IMG/VR virus record: IMGVR_UViG_3300020202_000002
Coordinates: 24,747 to 88,746 of that record
DNA length: 64,000 nucleotides
DNA from: a virus
Direction: 5' to 3' (one strand)
The notes under the pieces were generated by a model, which had not been told where the DNA came from, ran no database searches, and worked only from the letters and a program-made list of their open reading frames with translations. The position numbers were made by a program, and so were the translations under genes. Every line of letters begins with the position of its first letter. The stretch's first letter is position 1. This document shows, piece by piece, positions 24,587 through 48,462 of the stretch.

Positions 24587-25056
24587 TGGACCGGTGGACA
24601 GTCGGGTTCTGGCACGAACGAATTCGCGCTGCCATGCAAGGCGGCAAGGGACTGCGCGAGGCGATCAGCGATTGCGGATCGGATGTCAACTACTGGAAGC
24701 GCATTGACGGACAGGCACAGGCGATTCTTGCGGAACACGTCCAGCCCGGAGACAAGGTTCTCGATGTCGGCTGCGGCCTGGGCGACTTGTCGGCGCTGTT
24801 GCCTCCTGACGTGGTGTATGTGGGCGTGGATTTTGTCCCTGAGTTCGTGGCCGAGGCCGAGCGGAGATTCCCGAGCAGAGAGTTTGTTGGCGGCGACCTT
24901 CACGACTTGAGCAGGTTTGCTGACCGCTCGTTTGACTGGGTCATCGCCAGAGGAGGCACCAGCGAAGTCAACCCCGAGATGCGACGGGTGGCTTGTGGAG
25001 CAGTCCTGATGTCGTTTTCGGATCCGGTGCAAGCTGATGTGGCCAGGTGGGGGTGA
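24586..25056 (+). CDS. Class I SAM-dependent methyltransferase
   Basis: VLDVGCGLG...YVGVDF...SFDWV. Confidence 0.8.
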   Translation: MDRWTVGFWHERIRAAMQGGKGLREAISDCGSDVNYWKRIDGQAQAILAEHVQPGDKVLDVGCGLGDLSALLPPDVVYVGVDFVPEFVAEAERRFPSREFVGGDLHDLSRFADRSFDWVIARGGTSEVNPEMRRVACGAVLMSFSDPVQADVARWG

Positions 25057-25059
25057 CGG

Positions 25060-25710
25060 ATGCTGAACGGAATCAAAAAAGCCGCCGCCTTCTTCTGCCA
25101 CCAGGACGACGAAATGGTGGCGGCTGGCACGCTTCATCGCCTTGCCAGCGCCGGCTGCGAGGTGCATGTCGTATCGTTCTCGCCATGCGCCACGATTAAT
25201 GACCGCATGGGAACCGAAGTATCGTCTCGTCTTGTTCTGCCGGAATGGCACCTATCGATGGACCTGATCGGCGTAGGGCAGGAGCAACGGCACTTTCTCA
25301 ACTACACGCCAAGCGTGAGCATTGCTGATCGTCGTCAGGACGTGGCCAACTATGTATTCGACTTCTGCGAGCGCGAGCGGCCGGACGTGGCGTTCGTCTT
25401 GTCGCCAGAGGATGAAAACACGGCGCATGCAGTGGTCGGCGTCGAGTGTGAGCGGGTCATGCGCGGCCGCGTTCCCATGGTGGTTCGGTGTAACTTCGCG
25501 TGGAACTATTCCATCGGCAGGCCGAACCTGTTCGTGGCGCTCTCGGACAAGGACCTGGACATCAAGCGGCGCGTGATCAATGCCTACCAATCGCAGAAAT
25601 TTAGGTACGACTACGGTGCCATGTTGATGGCGTACTGCATCGGCGATGGCAAGAGCGTCAAGGTCGCGGCGGCGGAGCGTTTCGAGATCATCAGGAGCGT
25701 CGTTACATGA
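25060..25710 (+). CDS. PIG-L/LmbE-family deacetylase
   Basis: HQDDE motif, AH, K...INAYQSQ. Confidence 0.75.
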   Translation: MLNGIKKAAAFFCHQDDEMVAAGTLHRLASAGCEVHVVSFSPCATINDRMGTEVSSRLVLPEWHLSMDLIGVGQEQRHFLNYTPSVSIADRRQDVANYVFDFCERERPDVAFVLSPEDENTAHAVVGVECERVMRGRVPMVVRCNFAWNYSIGRPNLFVALSDKDLDIKRRVINAYQSQKFRYDYGAMLMAYCIGDGKSVKVAAAERFEIIRSVVT

Positions 25711-26366
25711 GCCACATCGTCATTGCCGGCGCATCCGGGGCCATCGGCACGGCTCTCGTTCGGAAGTATCTGGACGAAGGGCATGTGGTGACGGCACTGA
25801 TCAATAGAAGCTACCTTGAATTCGGACACAAGCATTTGCACGAGAGGCTTATCAACACTGACGAGATTGACGTGCCCCAAAAGGTAGACGCTCTGATAAC
25901 GCTGACTGCCGACACGAGGAACAAGAAACTTGGCAAGATGGACATCAACGAGTGGGAATCGGTGCTACGCTCGACTCTGACATCACCGTTTCAGTGCATA
26001 AACGCGCTGGCGTCAACGTTGGTAACCGGCGCGTCCATTGTCGTCGTCGGTTCTATTGTCGGCAGCCTTGGGGGGTACGGCTGCGCGAACTACGCCGCGG
26101 CCAAGGCCGGACTCGTGGGCCTTGTCCGCGCGGCTGCAAACGAGCTGGCCGGCCGCAAGATCCGCGTGAACCTGCTTGAGTTGGGCTACGTCAACGCCGG
26201 CATGGGCGAGCGTCTGTCGGACGACATCAAGGCCAAGGTGACCGAGACGATTCCGCTGAAGCGGTTTGCTGAGGTTGACGAGGTGTTGCACGCGATCGAG
26301 TTCTTGAGGACGGCCACGTACATGACTGGCAACACGCTAACTGTAGCAGGAGGGCTAAGGGCATGA
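25707..26366 (+). CDS. SDR-family (FabG-like) oxidoreductase
   Basis: GASGAIG, NYAAAKAG (YxxxK), IPLKRF, YMTG. Confidence 0.85.
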   Translation: MSHIVIAGASGAIGTALVRKYLDEGHVVTALINRSYLEFGHKHLHERLINTDEIDVPQKVDALITLTADTRNKKLGKMDINEWESVLRSTLTSPFQCINALASTLVTGASIVVVGSIVGSLGGYGCANYAAAKAGLVGLVRAAANELAGRKIRVNLLELGYVNAGMGERLSDDIKAKVTETIPLKRFAEVDEVLHAIEFLRTATYMTGNTLTVAGGLRA

Positions 26367-41012: not shown

Positions 41013-42065
41013 TCAGCGACCAACAAGCTCGTGAATTCTGTACGTCCGCCATCCCGTTCGGAGTGTGACGGCTTTGAATCTCCACGTCTCTCCGTCGCCC
41101 AAGTTGGTGACGTTGGTGAGCACCTCATCTACCAAAGCCCCGTTTTCGTCGTACAGCTTGAAAGTGATTTGCGCGTAGCGGACAGTCTTGCCGCGTCGGT
41201 TCACGACCAAGCCAGTGATCTCGCCAGTAAACTGGCGGGTGGTGGCCTTGACGCTCTTCTTCAGAAGCACCAATCCATCGACCTCGTATTCTTCCTCAGC
41301 CCGGCGCGCCGCCTCGGCACGCTCCCTTTCTTCTGCGATGTCCTCCGGCAGTCGTACCGGTTCGACCTGCGCCGGTGGGGCCGGCAACGCCAGCTTGGGC
41401 TCGATCGGCTGGACCGGACGATCGGGAACAGGCGGAACCTCTCTTGGCGTCACCGTTTTCCCGGCAAGCAGTGCCTTCGCGTCGGCGGCCGCTTTCGTGT
41501 CGGGATACTTGGAAATGATCGTCTGGTACTGCGTCCGGGCGATTTCGAGCACGAATTTGCTGGCCCCAGGCTTCGTTCGTGCGGATCGCAACGCCTTGGC
41601 CGCGTCGTGCTCCGCTTTCGCGTCGTCGTATTCGTCCTTCGCCTTCCTGTAGCTCTTCATCGCAGCACTGTAGGTAGTGACTTTCGCCCTGTGCTCGGTT
41701 TCCAGCCTGAACACTTCGGCGTCGTAGGCTTCCTTGTTCGCCTTGTTCGTGGCGTCGGCGTCGGCCCTTGCCTTCGCTCGGCGTTCCTCTCTCGTCGGTT
41801 CTCGCGGATCCGGGACACTTGGTGCTGGCCGTTCTTGGCGTGCGACCGGGACAGGCTTCCGTTCGGGCGTGGGCGGAGGGGTGACCTTCTTCTCCGCGAC
41901 CACCGGTTGGGGCGCCGGGGCAGGCTGATTGGGCTTCATCAAGCCAGGCATCAGCAAGCATCCGCCGCAGCCGCAACAGGCTACGACGAACATGACGCCG
42001 CCTGCCAGGATGCCGGCTGCGACCTTCACGGCTGGGGACGGACTGGTGTTGTTGAGCTTGCCCAT
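41013..42065 (-). CDS. Membrane-anchored FxLYD-domain protein
   Basis: Hydrophobic N-terminal segment with ACCGCGGC, Pro-rich linker, coiled coil, C-terminal ITG.VVN...ITFKLYDENG...NLGDGETWRF. Confidence 0.7.
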   Translation of the reverse strand: MGKLNNTSPSPAVKVAAGILAGGVMFVVACCGCGGCLLMPGLMKPNQPAPAPQPVVAEKKVTPPPTPERKPVPVARQERPAPSVPDPREPTREERRAKARADADATNKANKEAYDAEVFRLETEHRAKVTTYSAAMKSYRKAKDEYDDAKAEHDAAKALRSARTKPGASKFVLEIARTQYQTIISKYPDTKAAADAKALLAGKTVTPREVPPVPDRPVQPIEPKLALPAPPAQVEPVRLPEDIAEERERAEAARRAEEEYEVDGLVLLKKSVKATTRQFTGEITGLVVNRRGKTVRYAQITFKLYDENGALVDEVLTNVTNLGDGETWRFKAVTLRTGWRTYRIHELVGR

Positions 42066-42110
42066 GGCGCACCCGAAGAATTGGTGGCTTGTGATAGGCA
42101 AGCAGACGGA

Positions 42111-42320
42111 CTAGCTGGACCCAGGCCACGGATAGTTGTTCTCCTTCGCGTACAGACGCAACGCGCGAAGAACGATCGTGGTGATGGTTCTGTCTTCTTT
42201 CTCGGCAAGATCGTCCAGAGCTTGGCCGACTTCCTTGGGAAGACGGATGGTCTTTTTCGGGTTCAGGTGGCGATCCTTCTTCGGCTCACTCTGAGGCTGC
42301 TGCTTTGCCATAAAAGGCAT
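42111..42320 (-). CDS. Ribbon-helix-helix (CopG/Arc-like) regulator, candidate repressor
   Basis: KTIRLPKEVGQALDDLAEKEDRTITTIVLRALRLY. Confidence 0.7.
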   Translation of the reverse strand: MPFMAKQQPQSEPKKDRHLNPKKTIRLPKEVGQALDDLAEKEDRTITTIVLRALRLYAKENNYPWPGSS

Positions 42321-42380
42321 TATCGTGTCCCGTTTTCGTAACGCAACGCCAATTGCCGAGTTGCGACGGCCACAAGGCAT

Positions 42381-42409
42381 ATCGTAGGCACGTGTGACAT
42401 ATTTGTCAA
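42381..42409 (-). promoter_or_regulatory. Leftward sigma70-type promoter
   Basis: Minus strand TTGACA-17 nt-TACGAT. Confidence 0.7.
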
Positions 42410-42426
42410 ATTTTTAGCGATTTGTG

Positions 42427-42455
42427 TTGACTTGTGGACGGCCACACGTTAATAT
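42427..42455 (+). promoter_or_regulatory. Rightward (early) sigma70-type promoter with operator
   Basis: TTGACT-17 nt-TAATAT; inverted repeat TGTGG-ACGG-CCACA in the spacer; related copy GACGGCCACA at 42365-42374. Confidence 0.75.
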
Positions 42456-42533
42456 CAGTACATCAACGCCCAATTGCAGCCCCGAGTCCTCAGGCGGTCT
42501 GAGGGCCGGGGCATTCGAAAACGAGACACCGCC

Positions 42534-42860
42534 ATGTCCGCCATCCCTCAAGAAGTCCTGATCGACGCCGAAGGGGAATACCCCGACGAACTGGAGCCAG
42601 TCATCGAGGCCCTGTGGAAGGCCGCGAACGATCAGGTCGACATGGAAAGTCGCGAATTCGAGGGATACGAGGGCACGACTGACGCCGCGTGGGTCATCGT
42701 TCAGAACGAAGTCACCCTGAACGTGACCGCCTTCCCGGCGCTGCCGCAAAAGGTGTACGTCCATGTCGGTCGTCCCGGAGTGTACCTGACGCTGGCCAAA
42801 ATCGTCAGCCACGGCGCGAAGCGGATCGCAACCTACTCGGCGAGCATGTGGAGAGACTGA
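42534..42860 (+). CDS. Hypothetical early protein
   Basis: First ORF after the rightward promoter; TGATG-coupled to the next gene. Confidence 0.6.
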   Translation: MSAIPQEVLIDAEGEYPDELEPVIEALWKAANDQVDMESREFEGYEGTTDAAWVIVQNEVTLNVTAFPALPQKVYVHVGRPGVYLTLAKIVSHGAKRIATYSASMWRD

Positions 42861-43249
42861 TGCTTCCCATTCATTCACCGGCCTGGCACGAAGACATGCA
42901 GGCGAAACTTGACCTTGCTGGCGAGATGCACCGCATCGGCATGATCGCGAACGACCGCGAACGCGACATGTTCTTTGCGGCGCCGTGGCGATGGACGCCG
43001 GAATGGGAACGCTTTCGCCGCGGGCTGCCGCTGGATGGCAGCAAGGACAAGGACAACGAATTGCCAGCTTACATGACCCCGGTCGAAGCGTCTGCGTACT
43101 TGCGGATCCCAAAGGGGTCTCTCGACAACATGCGTTACGTTGGCGACGGTCCGGCGTACGTGAAGATCGGCAAGTCGGTGTACTACCGCAAGACCGATTG
43201 CGATGCGTTCATGGCAGACAACCTCGTGAACCTCGTGAACGTGGGATGA
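42860..43249 (+). CDS. Excisionase/AlpA-like HTH protein
   Basis: MTPVEASAYLRIPKGSLDNMRYVGDGPAYVKIGKSVYYRKTDCDAFM. Confidence 0.75.
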   Translation: MLPIHSPAWHEDMQAKLDLAGEMHRIGMIANDRERDMFFAAPWRWTPEWERFRRGLPLDGSKDKDNELPAYMTPVEASAYLRIPKGSLDNMRYVGDGPAYVKIGKSVYYRKTDCDAFMADNLVNLVNVG

Positions 43250-43789
43250 GGATTCCATGCGTTGCTCCATCTGCTCGAACGCAGCGTCCGTCGAATGCGT
43301 CGACTGCCACCGGCTGGCGTGTCGAGAGTGCCGGTCTGTGTGGGACGTGTGCGATCGGTGCTCGTCGCGGCGGCAGAAGATCGACGATTCGCGTCGGGAA
43401 CGGGAAGCGAAACGGAAACCTGTTTTGAAGGAAAGCGGAGTGAACCCATGCGTCTTGACTTATCCAACGGCCTGGTCCAGATGATCGCCGAGAACCCGGC
43501 TGACGGTCTGTCGCTAGGCTGCCTCGCGAACATGCTGCGGCTGCAGCCAGACGTGACGAGCCGCGATGTTCGTTTGGTTCTAGCGACGGTGCCAGCAGCG
43601 AACGGATCGCTGACGTGGCGGAAGGAGCGCCCCAACGCTCCTGGTTTCTGGATGGCTCGATACCCATCAGGCACGATGGACGGATGGGACTATCCGCGAG
43701 AGAGGATCCCTGAGTATGCCGACGTTCTCTGGGCCGGGCCGGTCGTAGTCGAAGACGAAATCAAGATCACGGTTCCAAAGGAGTAAGCC

Positions 43790-44128
43790 ATGGTCGCTCA
43801 AGGTCGCTCTGTTCGTATCTGCCATTGCTGCGGCAGTCCTGTTCAGGACGCCTTGTCGCACGAAGCCGCGGTCGTGCTGGGAGAACTGCGTGGGCTGATG
43901 TCGGAGATTCGCCAGCAGATCGAGCCGCAACCCGAGGCGACGACCATCATCGATAACGTTCGCAAGCTGTCGGCACGACTTCGCGCCGCTGCTGATTCGA
44001 TGGCGGTCAGCCGTGACATCATGTCCGACAACCCGGACGATCTGATTTCCGACTGGATCGCATCGAATCGGTCGCTGGCCGAGCAGTTGTTGGCGGTAAC
44101 GGTCGAGACGAAGACGTTGGTGTTTTGA
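43790..44128 (+). CDS. Hypothetical protein
   Basis: AAGGAG RBS, CxCC N-terminus, helical. Confidence 0.55.
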   Translation: MVAQGRSVRICHCCGSPVQDALSHEAAVVLGELRGLMSEIRQQIEPQPEATTIIDNVRKLSARLRAAADSMAVSRDIMSDNPDDLISDWIASNRSLAEQLLAVTVETKTLVF

Positions 44129-44142
44129 AACCCGGTGCACGG

Positions 44143-44199
44143 CCTGCCCCCGATCGGCAGGAGTCCGAGGCTCGGATGCGACGGGGGCAGGTTCTTTTT
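44143..44199 (+). terminator. Possible intrinsic terminator / structured element
   Basis: CCTGCCCCC (44143-44151) pairs with GGGGGCAGG (44183-44191), followed by TTCTTTTT; large loop with an inner hairpin. Confidence 0.5.
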
Positions 44200-44635
44200 C
44201 ACGAGAGCAACAGGATGGCCGGTAGCGGTATTAGCGGGCGAGTCTCGCGCCCATTCAGTGGCGAGTTAGTCTCGCTGGATGGCGTGGCAACAGACTGCGG
44301 TAACGACGTAAATAAGCACACCGGACCGGCAGGTTCGGGTGTCCCTCGTCGTCCAGTCGCCACGCACGAAGGCGATGCACTCTCGCTTAAGGCCACGCCC
44401 TCAGGGGCAAAACACGCGGGAGATGTGTCGATGGCCTCCCGCAACCATCACCGACCGCGCCGGCCATCCTATTGCTCTCGACGGAAGCGTGGTGCGAGGA
44501 AGTTTTCTCTTCCATGCCTTTACTGTGACAAGCCAGTGTCCATGAATGCTGGCCGTTTCATCGAGTTGTTCGACGCCGACAAGCGTCCGGTATGCAGAAG
44601 GTGCCTACCTTACAGTTTCTATTTGGAGGCTTTTC

Positions 44636-45178
44636 ATGACAGCAACAGCAGCAAAAGTGGCGAAGTTGAAAGACCTGGCTGGTAAGGCCGGCCAGTCGAT
44701 CTACGAGAGACTCGGCATCGTGCAGGAAGTTCTCGCCGACAAGGAATACGTCGCGGCCCACTACGGAGACGAGTCCAAGGCATTGGAAACTCTCGAAGCC
44801 GATGTGTTCGGCGACTTGTGCGGCTCGCGGTCCCTGACGGAACTTCTGGAAGTTCGCAAAGCGTTTCCCAGCGCCGAGCAGTGGAAGCAGCACAAGTGGA
44901 ACCTTTCGCGGCTACTGGCCGAGTGGGACGAACGCCGTCTTGCTGCTCGCGACGAGAGCGAGAAGCCGGAACGAAAGTCGCCCGTATCTCGCAAGGAACA
45001 CGAGACGGTCTTGCAGAAGCTTGCCGAGACGGAGCACGTCGCCGAGCGAAACGCCAAGACGGTCGACGAGCTGCGCGAGAAGCTTCGTCAGGTCGAGCAC
45101 GAGAACATCGCATTGCGGGCCAAGGTGGAGGAACTTGAGAGGCTGCTACAGGGCAGTTTGTCGCGAGCGGCAAGGTGA
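44636..45178 (+). CDS. Hypothetical protein with C-terminal coiled coil, directly upstream of the tracrRNA/CRISPR locus
   Basis: GGAGG RBS; 180 aa; heptad pattern ELREKLRQVEHENIALRAKVEELERLL. Confidence 0.75.
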   Translation: MTATAAKVAKLKDLAGKAGQSIYERLGIVQEVLADKEYVAAHYGDESKALETLEADVFGDLCGSRSLTELLEVRKAFPSAEQWKQHKWNLSRLLAEWDERRLAARDESEKPERKSPVSRKEHETVLQKLAETEHVAERNAKTVDELREKLRQVEHENIALRAKVEELERLLQGSLSRAAR

Positions 45179-45179
45179 T

Positions 45180-45339
45180 GGACCAAACCCAGGTAGTCGC
45201 TCGCGTTTCGCAAGAGACGTGAGCGACTACGATTGTGACTCGCACTGGTCTCACAGCTATCGGAAACGGTGATGAAAACGCTGGGCTCTCGCGACGTGAC
45301 GACAAAACGTGGATGGCAATGCGGTGGCGACAGGTGGCC
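45180..45339 (+). ncRNA. Predicted tracrRNA / scaffold RNA
   Basis: 17-bp stem with GCAA tetraloop and two G-U pairs (45193-45230); anti-repeat GTCTCACAGCTATC (45248-45261) complementary to the repeat 3' end GATGGTGAGAC with a 3-nt bulge; GAAA-loop hairpin next to it. Ends are approximate. Confidence 0.65.
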
Positions 45340-45666
45340 GTAGCAGAAGGTTGAGATCAGCAGGTGATGGTGAGACGCTAAGGCGATTCTGACGACCTCG
45401 CAATTCCTTGAGTAGCAGAAGGTTGAAAGCAGAAGGTGATGGTGAGACTAGGACAAGCACGCAAACCTACAGGGAAGGCAACGGTGCAGAAGGTTGGGAT
45501 CAAAAGGTGATGGTGAGACGGTCATGAACAAGGCTCTCGAAGCGACAGGCGCGTTGGGTGCAGAAGGTTTGATCGAAGTGGTGATGGCGAGGCTCGGGCC
45601 GACAGTTTGCAGGACAGTCAGGCGGTTGGTATCGCAGAAGGCTTAGTGAAAAGGTGAGAGCATGGG
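45340..45666 (+). CRISPR. CRISPR array part 1: 5 repeats (last degenerate), 4 spacers
   Basis: 37-bp repeats at 45340, 45412, 45483, 45557 and a degenerate copy at 45631; consensus GGTGCAGAAGG-N11-AGGTGATGGTGAGAC; unique spacers of 35, 34, 37 and 37 bp. Confidence 0.9.
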
Positions 45667-47047
45667 ACAACCTGAAACGACAAAGTGTGTCCTGAAGCTG
45701 CGCCTTGGTGCCAGCCTGACTGGTCCGACCAAGCGGATGGCACGCGACCTACACCAAGCGTCCCTTCTGTACAACCAGTGCCGAAATGCTATCGTGCGGG
45801 CCTGGGAACGCAGTGCGGAAGACAACCCAAGCGAAACGTTCGCGATGTTCGTATGCCGTTGTGGTGCTGCCGAAAGGCGAGCCTCTCGCAAGGCCGCTGG
45901 AGAATCCAAGGTCCGCGAGCACTGTACTTGCGAAGACAACCCGTGTGAGGTGGCCAGACAAGCGTGCCCATTGCTGGCTGCCAAGATCACCACGTCTTGC
46001 GCCACGCAGGAAGTGTCGGCCAAACTGCGGTCCAAGCTCCCCTGGAACCGACCGAACAAGGCACACCGTTACATATGGCAGGGCATACTCGCCAACCAGG
46101 TTGCGCGGCCATGCTATCGCGGCTCGGAACTGCCGGTGCCTTGCCAGGACGCCAAGCTTTCGCTCACGGATAGCGGATACACGCTCAGTTTCCCGGTGTG
46201 GTCCTTGGCATCCGGTCGGCAGCACCGTAATTTCCTGTGCCGCATCCCGACGAAGCGGCTCACTCGCGGCTACAAAAGAATCCTTTTCAACATCGTCAAG
46301 GGCGAGTGGAATCTGTGCGATTCTCGCTTGCAGTTCCACGAACCCAGATCGCGGCAAAAGAAGGGTTTCTGGGCCATCCACCTTGTCTACGATCGCAAGC
46401 AGGATCCGATCGCCGGATTGGACAGCAAGCAGGTCGCCAGGCTTACTCTCCAGCCCAAGGACGCCAAGAAGCCTTTCGATGTCAGCACGGATGGTGTTTT
46501 CAAGCCATGGCTGCTGGGTGACGTGGATGTGTATCTCGGCTTCCTGTCTCGTTTGGAGACTCGCCGATTGGAGATGCGCCTACGTCACAAGGAGAAGGGG
46601 TCGGGGCGGCGTGGCCATGGGCGAGGTCGAACCGAAAAGGCGATTCGTCCGGCGACTCGCAAGGCGCGCAACATCGCTCGTCTGTTCCAGTGGCGCATCG
46701 TCGCGCAACTCGTGCGGTTCTGCGAGCGGTACGGATGTGGCGTCGTTGAGTTTAGCGAGCCGAAACAAGGGCAGAAGAATGCCAGCTGGTTTGCAGTGCC
46801 TGGTCGGCCGTGGACATGGGCGGACTTTATGAGCCGGCTGAAGCACAAGCTGTGGGTGAACGGCATCGATCTACGCGAGAGCGAAGGTGGTGAACAGAAA
46901 CAGGCACGTCGCTCGCGTGGCCCAAAGGTTAATGGTGGCACTGGTAACGGCAAGATGCCACACAATGGAGGCGAAGTGGCGAACGGAAAGAATGGGGTCG
47001 CTCGCAAGACGGGGCGAAAAGCTGGACGGGGACGCGACGAAAAGTAA
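45662..47047 (+). CDS. cas12f: Nuclease-dead Cas12f-like (type V-F / TnpB superfamily) protein
   Basis: Collinear with AsCas12f1 as recalled: GILANQVARPCYRG, KRILFNIVKGEW, WAIHLVYD, LETRRLEM...GSGRRGHGRGR, YGCGVVEFSEP, WTWADFMSRL...GI. RuvC-I Asp is Thr262, RuvC-II Glu is Ser365, zinc ribbon and RuvC-III are absent. Confidence 0.85.
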   Translation: MGQPETTKCVLKLRLGASLTGPTKRMARDLHQASLLYNQCRNAIVRAWERSAEDNPSETFAMFVCRCGAAERRASRKAAGESKVREHCTCEDNPCEVARQACPLLAAKITTSCATQEVSAKLRSKLPWNRPNKAHRYIWQGILANQVARPCYRGSELPVPCQDAKLSLTDSGYTLSFPVWSLASGRQHRNFLCRIPTKRLTRGYKRILFNIVKGEWNLCDSRLQFHEPRSRQKKGFWAIHLVYDRKQDPIAGLDSKQVARLTLQPKDAKKPFDVSTDGVFKPWLLGDVDVYLGFLSRLETRRLEMRLRHKEKGSGRRGHGRGRTEKAIRPATRKARNIARLFQWRIVAQLVRFCERYGCGVVEFSEPKQGQKNASWFAVPGRPWTWADFMSRLKHKLWVNGIDLRESEGGEQKQARRSRGPKVNGGTGNGKMPHNGGEVANGKNGVARKTGRKAGRGRDEK

Positions 47048-47052
47048 TGGCA

Positions 47053-47238
47053 GGTGCAGAAGGTTGGAAGCAGAAGGTGATGGTGAGACGAACACGTCGA
47101 ACACGGTCACGTACTTCTCCGAGGATGGTGCAGAAGGTGTCGAGTCAAAGGTGATGGTGAGACGGCCTGATTGCGCAGCCAAGTAAATGAACGCAGAGGC
47201 GGGTTCAGAAGGTTTCGAGTCAAAGGTGATGGTGAGAC
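47053..47238 (+). CRISPR. CRISPR array part 2: 3 repeats, 2 spacers
   Basis: 37-bp repeats at 47053, 47127 and 47202, same family and orientation as part 1; spacers of 37 and 38 bp. Confidence 0.9.
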
Positions 47239-47351
47239 GTGTATGAGCAACGACAAACGAACCTGGCTATCCACGTTGGCCAGAGTGGCCAGCGCCTTGC
47301 GATGGATAGCGAAACTGTTCGTGTGGTGAAGCCGGAAATGGAGGTCCCAAC

Positions 47352-47558
47352 ATGCTGGTTCTGGCGCGTCGAATCGAGGAAGAGTTGATCATCAACAACA
47401 ACATCACTGTGAAGGTGATCGAGTTGGGCCGAGGCCAGGTCAAGCTGGGCATAACCTGCGACCGCAACATTCCGGTTTATCGCAGGGAACTGGTCAAGAC
47501 GCAGGACCAGGTGAAGACGCTCTGGGGAACGGTTCCCGTTGGAGACGCCGATGCCTGA
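47352..47558 (+). CDS. csrA: CsrA/RsmA-family RNA-binding regulator
   Basis: MLVLARRIEEELIINNNITVKVIELGRGQVKLGITCDRNIPVYRREL; GGAGG RBS. Confidence 0.85.
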   Translation: MLVLARRIEEELIINNNITVKVIELGRGQVKLGITCDRNIPVYRRELVKTQDQVKTLWGTVPVGDADA

Positions 47559-47862
47559 CCTAAGCCGCCTAACTGAACGTCAGAAGGCCATCTACGAGTT
47601 CGTGCGCGGCATCATCATCAAGCGCGGCTACGGACCAACGGTGCGCGAAATCGGCGATGCGTTCGACATCAGCTCGCCAAACGGAGTCAGCGTTCATCTT
47701 CGATCGCTCCAGAAGAAGGGTTTGATTCATCGCAACAAGGGCGAGGCCCGCGCCATAACGATCGTCGGCATGGAACTGAGCGCCGCGCCGCCGTGCCGGT
47801 GCCCCAGGTGCGGCCACGTTATCGGAGAGCCGGTGGAGATGGCGGAGGTGTCCGGTGTCTGA
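47551..47862 (+). CDS. LexA-like DNA-binding domain with C-terminal CxCxxC, no peptidase domain
   Basis: LTERQKAIYEF...GYGPTVREIG..F.ISSPNGV..HL.SLQKKGLI.R....RAI; about 103 aa. Confidence 0.8.
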   Translation: MPDLSRLTERQKAIYEFVRGIIIKRGYGPTVREIGDAFDISSPNGVSVHLRSLQKKGLIHRNKGEARAITIVGMELSAAPPCRCPRCGHVIGEPVEMAEVSGV

Positions 47863-48193
47863 CCTGCAACGAAATCTGTTCGGCAACGACCCAGACCTGA
47901 CGCCGACGGTGTTCGCGCAGCGGCACAGCCGGACCAGCGTCGAAGCTGGCGAGAAGATCAAGCCGGTGCTGAACTTCCTGGAGCGGAAGGTGCTGGAATT
48001 CTTCCAGGCAAAGGGAGATGCCGGCGCGACCGACGAAGAGGCCCAGGAAGGCACCGGTCTGGGAGGTAGCACAGAAAGACCGCGGCGGACCTCGCTGGTT
48101 GAGCACGGTTTACTCAGGGACAGCGGACGAACGAGGAGAACTCGGAGCGGAAGGCAGGCGGTGGTGTGGATCTACATCGCTCAGGAGGAATGA
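47855..48193 (+). CDS. Winged-HTH phage protein
   Basis: TSVEA...VLEF....GATDEE...RPRRTSL...GLLRDSG.TR.TRSGR.AVVW. Confidence 0.65.
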   Translation: MSDLQRNLFGNDPDLTPTVFAQRHSRTSVEAGEKIKPVLNFLERKVLEFFQAKGDAGATDEEAQEGTGLGGSTERPRRTSLVEHGLLRDSGRTRRTRSGRQAVVWIYIAQEE

Positions 48194-48462
48194 CCATGAG
48201 CAGGAACGGCCAACGAACCCCGGAACAGATATTCGGCATCAAGCCGGAGCACGCGGCTGAACTGCTGGAGAAACTGACGCCGCGCGAGAAGGAAGTTGCG
48301 GCACTGATGGCGGCCGGCTGGACGAACTCGACGATCGCAGCGCGGCTCGACATCAGCAAGAAAACGCTCGACATCCACAGGGGCAAGGTGAAGCGCGGCC
48401 TTGGCTGTCCGATCAACGGCATCGGTCGCATCGTATTCGCGAGCATGTTTGCGCAGGAGTGA
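48190..48462 (+). CDS. LuxR/GerE-type HTH protein
   Basis: LTPREKEVAALMAAGWTNSTIAARLDISKKTLDIHRGKVKRGLG. Confidence 0.85.
   Translation: MTMSRNGQRTPEQIFGIKPEHAAELLEKLTPREKEVAALMAAGWTNSTIAARLDISKKTLDIHRGKVKRGLGCPINGIGRIVFASMFAQE

Follow-up and report, generated by a model that had tools for sequence, protein, structure and literature searches.

To date, work on naturally occurring nuclease-dead relatives of the compact nuclease Cas12f has dealt with them as transcription devices of bacteria. The accessible part of PMC13472631 describes a dead, C-terminally truncated Cas12f tied to σE and, as a distinct cluster, dead Cas12f proteins encoded near bacterial CRISPR arrays, upstream of which lies a conserved RNA. 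PMC10691335, in the portion available to us, notes large branches of Cas12f whose catalytic sites are altered. Here we analyse a 64,000-nucleotide (nt) stretch of viral DNA (IMG/VR record IMGVR_UViG_3300020202_000002, positions 24,747 to 88,746; hereafter the window, whose numbering we use unless the contig is named), the final part of a single 88,746-nt contig. It carries what we read as a phage-borne, interference-defective type V-F-like module, made up of a zinc-ribbon gene, a coiled-coil gene, a dead Cas12f gene and two CRISPR arrays with their RNA modules. The explanation that we favour, with slightly better than even confidence, is that this module encodes an early-expressed RNA-guided DNA binder aimed at variable outside DNA (rival elements, host defence genes).

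The 461-residue protein encoded between the two arrays is, judged from its sequence and from a structural model, a Cas12f fold without the RuvC active site. An alignment to AsCas12f made by eye in a first-pass annotation of this DNA was reproduced by HMMER: phmmer matched AsCas12f chains over residues 141-404 with an expectation (E) value of 1.8e-7. The substitutions proposed in that annotation are the same in the HMMER alignment, the RuvC-I aspartate being replaced by Thr262 (...IMGIDLG of AsCas12f aligned with VARLTLQ) and the RuvC-II glutamate by Ser365, with Glu366 adjacent (GCGTIQMED aligned with GCGVVEFSE), while the GHGR motif is retained (GGHGR aligned with RGHGR). A family profile of 140 relatives, searched against the PDB, matched OsCas12f (E 2.7e-26) and AsCas12f (3.5e-26) across almost the entire length, followed by the σE-type dead Cas12f 9n9c (1.4e-14), Un1Cas12f (3e-12) and TnpB (9nzp, 6.6e-7). 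The best relatives by sequence and fold are the Cas12f1 nucleases, over profile residues 16-419. The AlphaFold2 model (predicted local distance difference test 86.6, predicted template modelling score 0.80) is confident and folded over residues 1-405, with a disordered tail at 411-461. With this model Foldseek returned the structural match to Cas12f that had been anticipated, AsCas12f standing at the top (8j12_A, E 9e-18, TM 0.53-0.57), 9n9c at rank 12 (E 1.6e-13) and Cas12m (8hhl) at rank 36 (E 5.8e-6). Pfam gave no match to the protein, and the NCBIfam model guided_TnpB scored 22 bits against a cut-off of 100. Neither a RuvC-III segment nor a zinc ribbon nor any CxxC was found in the sequence or the model of the 461-residue chain, which terminates where Cas12f would enter the zinc ribbon.

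These losses are shared by a large family. An exhaustive search recovered at least 225 cluster representatives at E ≤ 0.001, 70 of them at E ≤ 1e-30; the six clusters whose names were looked up are all called 'hypothetical protein'. In the alignment of 140 proteins only three have Asp at the RuvC-I position and 80 have Arg at the RuvC-II position; the two columns that follow are Glu in 111 and Pro in 137. Two proteins are acidic at both catalytic positions, leaving 138 without the acidic pair, and a zinc ribbon with RuvC-III tail is present in one, a fringe match. The ratio of nonsynonymous to synonymous substitution rates (dN/dS) is 0.06-0.40 in the 12 gene pairs with measurable dS (3 of 15 pairs were saturated), the pairs being drawn from related family loci with the closest relatives, P0002-P0005, left out. 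From these ratios and the family-wide recurrence of the same losses we conclude that the loss of catalysis is old, common to the family and maintained under selection, and is not decay. The opposite view, that the locus is a decaying, functionless remnant of a captured Cas12f locus, can point to the lost catalytic residues, the truncated protein, the degenerate fourth and fifth repeats (R4 and R5) and a total of just six spacers. Against it stand the dN/dS range, identical losses recurring over 140 aligned proteins in a family of at least 225 clusters, the conservation of the partner genes and the confident structural model, and we regard it as largely refuted, with a very slight residual probability. 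The family-wide loss of the active site, the dN/dS values and the presence of real multi-spacer arrays bear out the earlier suggestion that the protein was repurposed.

Related loci were collected with a degenerate pattern derived from two family motifs, which detects only members keeping both. The scan yielded four IMG/VR viral contigs, one contig of a Planctomycetota metagenome-assembled genome (MAG) and 24 metagenome contigs, some of them the same DNA filed twice, and a family member is encoded in 29 of the 30 loci examined. Of 29 related loci, 19 have repeats next to the gene, most of the others having little flanking sequence, and arrays on both sides of the gene are seen in L002, L033, L046 and the window. 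Arrays in relatives reach 32-40 repeats, the L002 contig carrying 40 around its gene. The family loci yielded 116 unique spacers in all. The configuration, which the first-pass annotation did not recognise from elsewhere, thus recurs in phage and metagenome loci, and the accessible text of PMC13472631 describes an array-linked bacterial cluster. The locus suggests that phages carry a distinct branch of dead Cas12f, large and unannotated, with multi-spacer arrays whose guides turn over, a separate zinc-ribbon gene and a coiled-coil partner. Among cultured phages, tblastn with three members found only a weak transposase match in Bacillus phage Mgbh1. One family member is in the Planctomycetota MAG contig; among 401 Planctomycetota genomes the family profile had one match, this MAG itself, and the capsid protein had none.

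Two of the related contigs show features of their own. The 61-kilobase (kb) viral contig that holds L002 (G403) has a four-repeat mini-array on the opposite strand (25678-25927, minus) and six solitary repeats (33478, 36118, 38264, 49847 and 57871 plus; 59206 minus), several of them shortly upstream of purine-rich stretches and ATG codons; no such repeats came up in shuffled controls. L036 (3079-4200, in the orientation of the gene) encodes a distant member in a 638-codon open frame and, like the window, has an array that starts directly after the stop codon and no zinc-ribbon open reading frame (ORF) behind the gene.

In the window, seven 37-nt repeats lie on the + strand and, in a Hamming scan of the whole contig on both strands that admitted up to 14 mismatches of 37, nowhere else. 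An eighth, truncated repeat (R5) aligns with the other seven, with 15 invariant columns; the ends of the repeat are conserved and an 11-nt core is variable. The arrays flank the 461-residue ORF on the same strand, five repeats upstream and three downstream, and comprise six spacers of 34-40 nt, so that the count of eight related repeats and six spacers made at first sight was right. The AAGGTGAG of the truncated R5 directly precedes the ATG of the ORF. Such a layout raises the possibility of a role at the RNA level, in which the protein would bind repeats in the early polycistronic RNA to process it, stabilise it or control its neighbours, the spacers being linkers. The arrays do sit between genes of one operon, R5 places its sequence right before the ATG, and the solitary repeats of G403 occur shortly before purine-rich stretches and ATG codons. 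Spacer lengths are nevertheless held within a CRISPR-like range, the spacers are unique and turning over, no solitary repeat was found in the genome of the window's phage, and Cas12f relatives are DNA binders; we consider an RNA-level role quite improbable.

The spacers themselves are informative. The loci L025 and L031, whose genes differ by a dS of 0.016 and whose pre-array modules are identical, have different first spacers, and the arrays of the close relatives L034, L035, L044 and L045 also differ. From these sequence comparisons, guides are renewed quickly among near-identical phages. The absence of cas1 and cas2, noted earlier for the window, holds for the complete genome: no Pfam match to Cas1 or Cas2 was found in its 88.7 kb, in a search whose positive controls worked. 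Since the phage has neither protein, guides would have to be gained in trans or by recombination. Spacers have no self-match, neither in the 88.7-kb genome of the window's phage nor in G403. Because guides differ between near-identical phages and none matches its own genome, the targets are most likely outside the phage and variable, and the turnover fits such targets better than it fits a fixed regulator.

Taken this way, the module would be transcribed within a rightward early operon and the array transcripts cut into guides that retain the conserved 3' end of the repeat. The guides would load onto the dead Cas12f, probably along with the pre-array RNA, and the complex would bind matching double-stranded DNA and, having no RuvC site, stay bound. 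Bound complexes could then block transcription or replication of the target, most likely rival phages, prophages, plasmids or host defence genes, with new guides being acquired in trans or by recombination. A bolder version, that soil and water tailed phages reload this three-protein binder in trans and fire it early against host defence genes or rivals, as an offensive form of CRISPR interference ('CRISPRi') in which the partners might contribute more than plain roadblocking, we offer as possible but doubtful.

Two partner genes lie upstream of the arrays and had been overlooked in the first-pass annotation, as had the second of the RNA modules described below, which sits in the codons of the disordered tail. 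That annotation held the zinc ribbon and RuvC-III to be gone. This is correct for the 461-residue chain, but the locus encodes a separate zinc-ribbon protein. A hidden Markov model of the relatives' zinc-ribbon ORFs matches this gene alone among 1333 ORFs of the phage (E 2e-9), and A6, C29, C32, R42, C55 and C58 are invariant in the alignment. In 26 of 29 related loci the zinc-ribbon ORF, which has its own ATG, runs in another frame across the stop codon of the dead Cas12f gene; in the window it is not behind the dead Cas12f gene but just before the coiled-coil gene. The zinc part of the relatives' ORF evolves as coding sequence (omega 0.10-0.40, with high synonymous change). Searches of the protein against Pfam, the PDB and known folds returned nothing beyond generic zinc fingers, and the idea that it is a detached domain of Cas12f found no support in sequence or fold searches. 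On the strength of the alignments, we conclude that the system has not lost its zinc ribbon, which is split off into a small conserved protein of its own. In 13 of 29 related loci tblastn finds a homologue of the coiled-coil protein encoded immediately upstream of the dead Cas12f gene. This protein has no family match in Pfam or PHROG, and its nearest Atlas clusters are viral hypothetical proteins.

Each array is preceded by a module that may encode RNA. Module 1, a candidate tracr-like (trans-activating CRISPR RNA-like) or leader RNA, contains a hairpin of 17 bp capped by a GCAA loop (45193-45230), a GTCTCAC (45248-54) and a CTCTCGC box (45286-92). The structured stretch reported earlier upstream of the ORF does stand up, the fold of 45175-45376 having a z score of -2.96 and being better than all but one of 200 shuffles. 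Module 2 holds GTCGCTCGCG at 46908-17 and GTCGCTCGCAAG at 46998-47008 and is not unusually stable (z +0.31). The modules align with each other and are thus paralogous, each lying just before an array. With the family's pre-array profile, nhmmer gave only two matches in the 88.7-kb genome, both weak: 45195-45236 in module 1 (E 0.016-0.022) and 46909-47012 in module 2 (E about 0.36). The anti-repeat signal of module 1 is weak and consists of a 7-nt complement at 45248-54 together with the CTCTCGC box. Rfam had no match over 44000-48000.

In most relatives the gene and the first repeat are 265-305 nt apart, and the distal part of this stretch has two boxes with a CTCGC core and synonymous change below that of the zinc part. 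RNAalifold joins the first box to the codons for the second CxxC, one pair covarying (CG in 8, AU in 2); the second box, CTCGCA, it joins to TGCGAG at the end of the repeat in 9-11 of 11 loci, and here no covariation is seen. The window has these boxes twice, in module 1 and again in module 2. In the second copy, inside the codons of the disordered tail, the box is read in a frame different from that of relatives, an indication that it functions as RNA or DNA. These sequence patterns make a tracr-like RNA likely for the family.

Several further resemblances were seen around these modules. Each opens with a half-repeat-like AAGGTG(A/G)TG(G/A)AC (45170-45183 and 46882-46895), the first copy overlapping the coiled-coil gene's stop codon. 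In the window's zinc-ribbon gene, the codons for the second CxxC (44577-44602, ...GTATGCAGAAGGTG...) are similar to the CRISPR repeat at its 5' end (45543-45568). The corresponding codons of relatives contain TGCGAG, the sequence of the repeat's 3' end, and form pairs with the first of the conserved boxes. In L034, L035 and L044 a full repeat is inserted in the pre-array module between the two boxes, about 190-260 nt past the stop of the gene, and is absent from the near-identical L045; repeats can thus invade the pre-array module itself.

The contig ends in direct terminal repeats, its last 127 nt being identical to its first 127, and CheckV rates it 100% complete. Among its genes are those for a tape-measure protein, an integrase, a DnaB-type helicase and DNA methyltransferases. 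From the terminal repeats, the completeness and the tape-measure, integrase and helicase genes it follows that the source is a complete temperate tailed phage. The DNA is from soil metagenomes, and identical contigs are present in two soil DNA runs, from which it may derive. The features of the module and its surroundings are collected in Table 1.

Table 1. Coordinates of the module and adjoining features, in window numbering
Feature	Position	Strand	Remarks
Divergent promoter-like pair	42381-42455	leftward 42409-42381; rightward 42427-42455	σ70-like consensus scan
Zinc-ribbon partner gene	44431-44685	+	84 residues, CxxC...CxxC; 50-nt overlap with start of next gene
Coiled-coil partner gene	44636-45178	+	180 residues from ATG 44636; GGAGG 7 nt upstream
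Pre-array module 1	45175-45339	+	candidate tracr-like/leader RNA
CRISPR array 1	45340-45661	+	R1-R3, degenerate R4, truncated R5 (45629-45661); four spacers
Dead, C-terminally shortened Cas12f-like gene	45662-47047	+	461 residues
Pre-array module 2	46887-47052	+	inside codons of the ORF's disordered tail
CRISPR array 2	47053-47238	+	R6-R8; two spacers
Full-length repeats	45340-76, 45412-48, 45483-519, 45557-93, 47053-89, 47127-63, 47202-38	+	45557-93 with 9 mismatches
Small 28-codon ORF	47243-47329		adjoins last repeat of array 2
CsrA homologue	47352-47558		Pfam E 1.1e-16; follows array 2 and the 28-codon ORF

By consensus scan, the divergent pair comprises the only σ70-like sites in 42000-48000; no promoter-like site was found on the + strand between the pair and 48000, and the single + strand terminator-like site up to 48000 is weak (44022-44039), there being fewer such sites than in shuffles. 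The pair is likely a switch region that drives a rightward early operon with the CRISPR module. Given that no + strand promoter-like site follows 42455 and that only a weak terminator-like site intervenes, the module appears, from these scans, to be part of that operon, in support of the first-pass placement in a phage early operon. The genes downstream encode CsrA, a LexA DNA-binding domain, a GerE helix-turn-helix (HTH) protein and a PD-(D/E)XK nuclease. The related contig G403 also has a CsrA (42% identity over 50 residues; L019 14544-14693), away from its module. The 107-residue protein at 47539-47862 is a LexA DNA-binding domain alone, without the protease part, and a 98-residue GerE/LuxR HTH protein (48166-48462) follows it within that operon; the related loci show no homologue of either. 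Elsewhere, a σ70 family gene lies at contig positions 10863-11069, right after a putative portal gene and about 13.8 kb before the start of the window. Its product scores 24.9-27.3 bits for region 2 and 43.4 bits for region 4, which stops 10 residues before the stop codon. The gene is at least about 29 kb from the module on the circle and was not found in any of the four related viral contigs searched (53-70% complete).

These neighbours bear on the view that the module is a fixed RNA-guided transcription factor of the TldR or dCas12f-σE kind, repressing or activating a set of host or phage promoters during infection. A nuclease-dead protein whose early operon also holds the regulators CsrA, a LexA DNA-binding domain and a GerE HTH protein would suit such a role, as would the σ70 family protein encoded elsewhere in the phage, and the dead relatives described in the accessible part of PMC13472631 act on transcription. 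It is harder to reconcile with guides that differ between near-identical phages, with relatives' arrays of up to 32-40 repeats, and with spacers none of which matches the phage's own genome; the σ gene is also remote, lacks a C-terminal extension and was not found in the four related viral contigs, and no related locus has a homologue of the GerE gene. We therefore consider a fixed regulator unlikely.

The long and changing arrays also have to be set against the idea of an anti-CRISPR decoy, which would soak up the guide RNA or tracrRNA of a host type V-F system or shield phage DNA from an active Cas12f. Viral cas homologues are known as anti-CRISPRs (bioRxiv 10.1101/2023.06.24.545427, from the part accessible to us), and solitary repeats are scattered over the G403 genome. 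Yet a decoy would have no need of long, diverse and fast-changing spacer sets, no similar repeat was found in the 401 Planctomycetota genomes searched, and the set assembled in the bioRxiv study excluded, by the portion of it available, cas genes linked to arrays. A decoy seems to us of decidedly low probability.

Returning to the proposed binder of variable outside DNA, a number of observations weigh against it. Glu366, beside the RuvC-II position, is conserved in 111 of the 140 family proteins. The anti-repeat that the first-pass annotation reported in the structured upstream stretch fared less well than the structure, the signal being weak and a duplex scan leaving 45175-45376 outside its 12 best windows, and a tracr-like RNA in the window's own phage is only tentatively supported by the sequence. 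Searches for targets were also negative. The window's array region gave negative or chance-level results against 401 Planctomycetota genomes, 50,697 phage records and 72,556 plasmid records; exact searches of IMG/VR with two 21-nt seeds from the window found no target; and none was found for 36 spacers of L002. The IMG/VR scan itself works, since the last of four exact seeds run found only its own arrays.

Other target searches gave the following. The L002 arrays matched the 401 Planctomycetota genomes only in genes, with none of the matches in spacers, and spacers compared with all fetched related loci found no target beyond chance-level partial matches. Partial matches of 17-19 nt among related loci, which are GC-rich and cover 23-26 of 36-37 positions, were rejected. 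So were matches of the first 21-25 nt of spacer 3 (45520-45556) to dxr in two Planctomycetota genomes and to queA in a third, with one mismatch each, which we read as chance because of the size of the search and because two unrelated genes are involved.

If the module does bind and silence outside targets, it would be a phage weapon that acts by binding and not by cutting, and its protein would be a very small programmable DNA binder of about 400 folded residues with natural multiplexing. The locus thereby raises a directly testable question, namely of what use a non-cutting CRISPR system is to a virus.

Several described systems come close to the module. The array-linked cluster, as far as the accessible part of PMC13472631 describes it, shares with the window a dead, truncated protein beside arrays, a conserved structured RNA upstream and a proposed mode of repression by binding. 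It differs, on the same account, in occurring in bacterial genomes (a Chitinophagaceae MAG) and in having guides to an efflux promoter, whereas the window's module is phage-borne and lies in an early operon. The window also has arrays on both sides of the gene, two conserved partners and fast guide turnover, in a comparison made with the description of that cluster only. The dCas12f-σE systems (PDB 9n9c, 9n9m), again by the accessible part of PMC13472631, share the Cas12f fold and the loss of part of RuvC through C-terminal truncation. Unlike them, the module has no operonic sigma factor bearing an extra C-terminal domain, its neighbours holding only the 98-residue GerE HTH protein, and it has arrays of five and three repeats in place of single chimeric guides; the family profile also scores the active AsCas12f and OsCas12f (about 1e-26) far better than 9n9c. 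Since the phage's σ70 gene is far off, lacks the extra domain and was not found in the four related contigs, the σE model does not apply.

With the Cas12f1 nucleases (AsCas12f, OsCas12f, SpCas12f1; PDB 7wju, 8j12, 9nzq, 9i8y) the window's system has in common repeats of 36-37 nt and the GHGR motif. It lacks their RuvC triad, in-chain zinc ribbon, RuvC-III and adaptation genes, and has separate zinc-ribbon and coiled-coil partners. Cas12m (type V-M), a DNA binder that silences its targets and does not cut them, resembles it in the proposed mode of action, in which binding at guide-directed sites keeps mobile elements from being transcribed or replicated. Cas12m keeps its RuvC site for guide processing and is not known to use a tracrRNA. 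It is a larger protein of its own lineage and a distant match in fold (8hhl, E 5.8e-6). Like the module it is carried on mobile elements, according to the accessible part of a review of CRISPR systems on such elements (PMC11656645), which mentions no phage system of the kind described here. The TldR proteins, from the partial accounts available to us, are likewise nuclease-dead RNA-guided members of the TnpB/Cas12 superfamily used by temperate phages, some of them phage-encoded; by the same accounts they descend directly from TnpB and rely on one guide RNA, which overlaps the gene at its 3' end. The window's protein has its nearest relatives in Cas12f (about 1e-26, compared with 6.6e-7 for TnpB 9nzp) and would take its guides from arrays. 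Unlike Cas12k and the CRISPR-associated transposons, no Tn7-like transposition genes turned up in Pfam and PHROG scans of 20 neighbouring or large ORFs, no dedicated search for TnsB, TnsC or TniQ having been made. We found no published phage-borne dead Cas12f with arrays and both partners, although the supplements of PMC10691335 and PMC13472631 may list such loci. Natural dead Cas12f, including an array-linked bacterial cluster, is thus already known from what is accessible of PMC13472631; what is new, as far as the literature was searched, is its phage-borne three-gene form.

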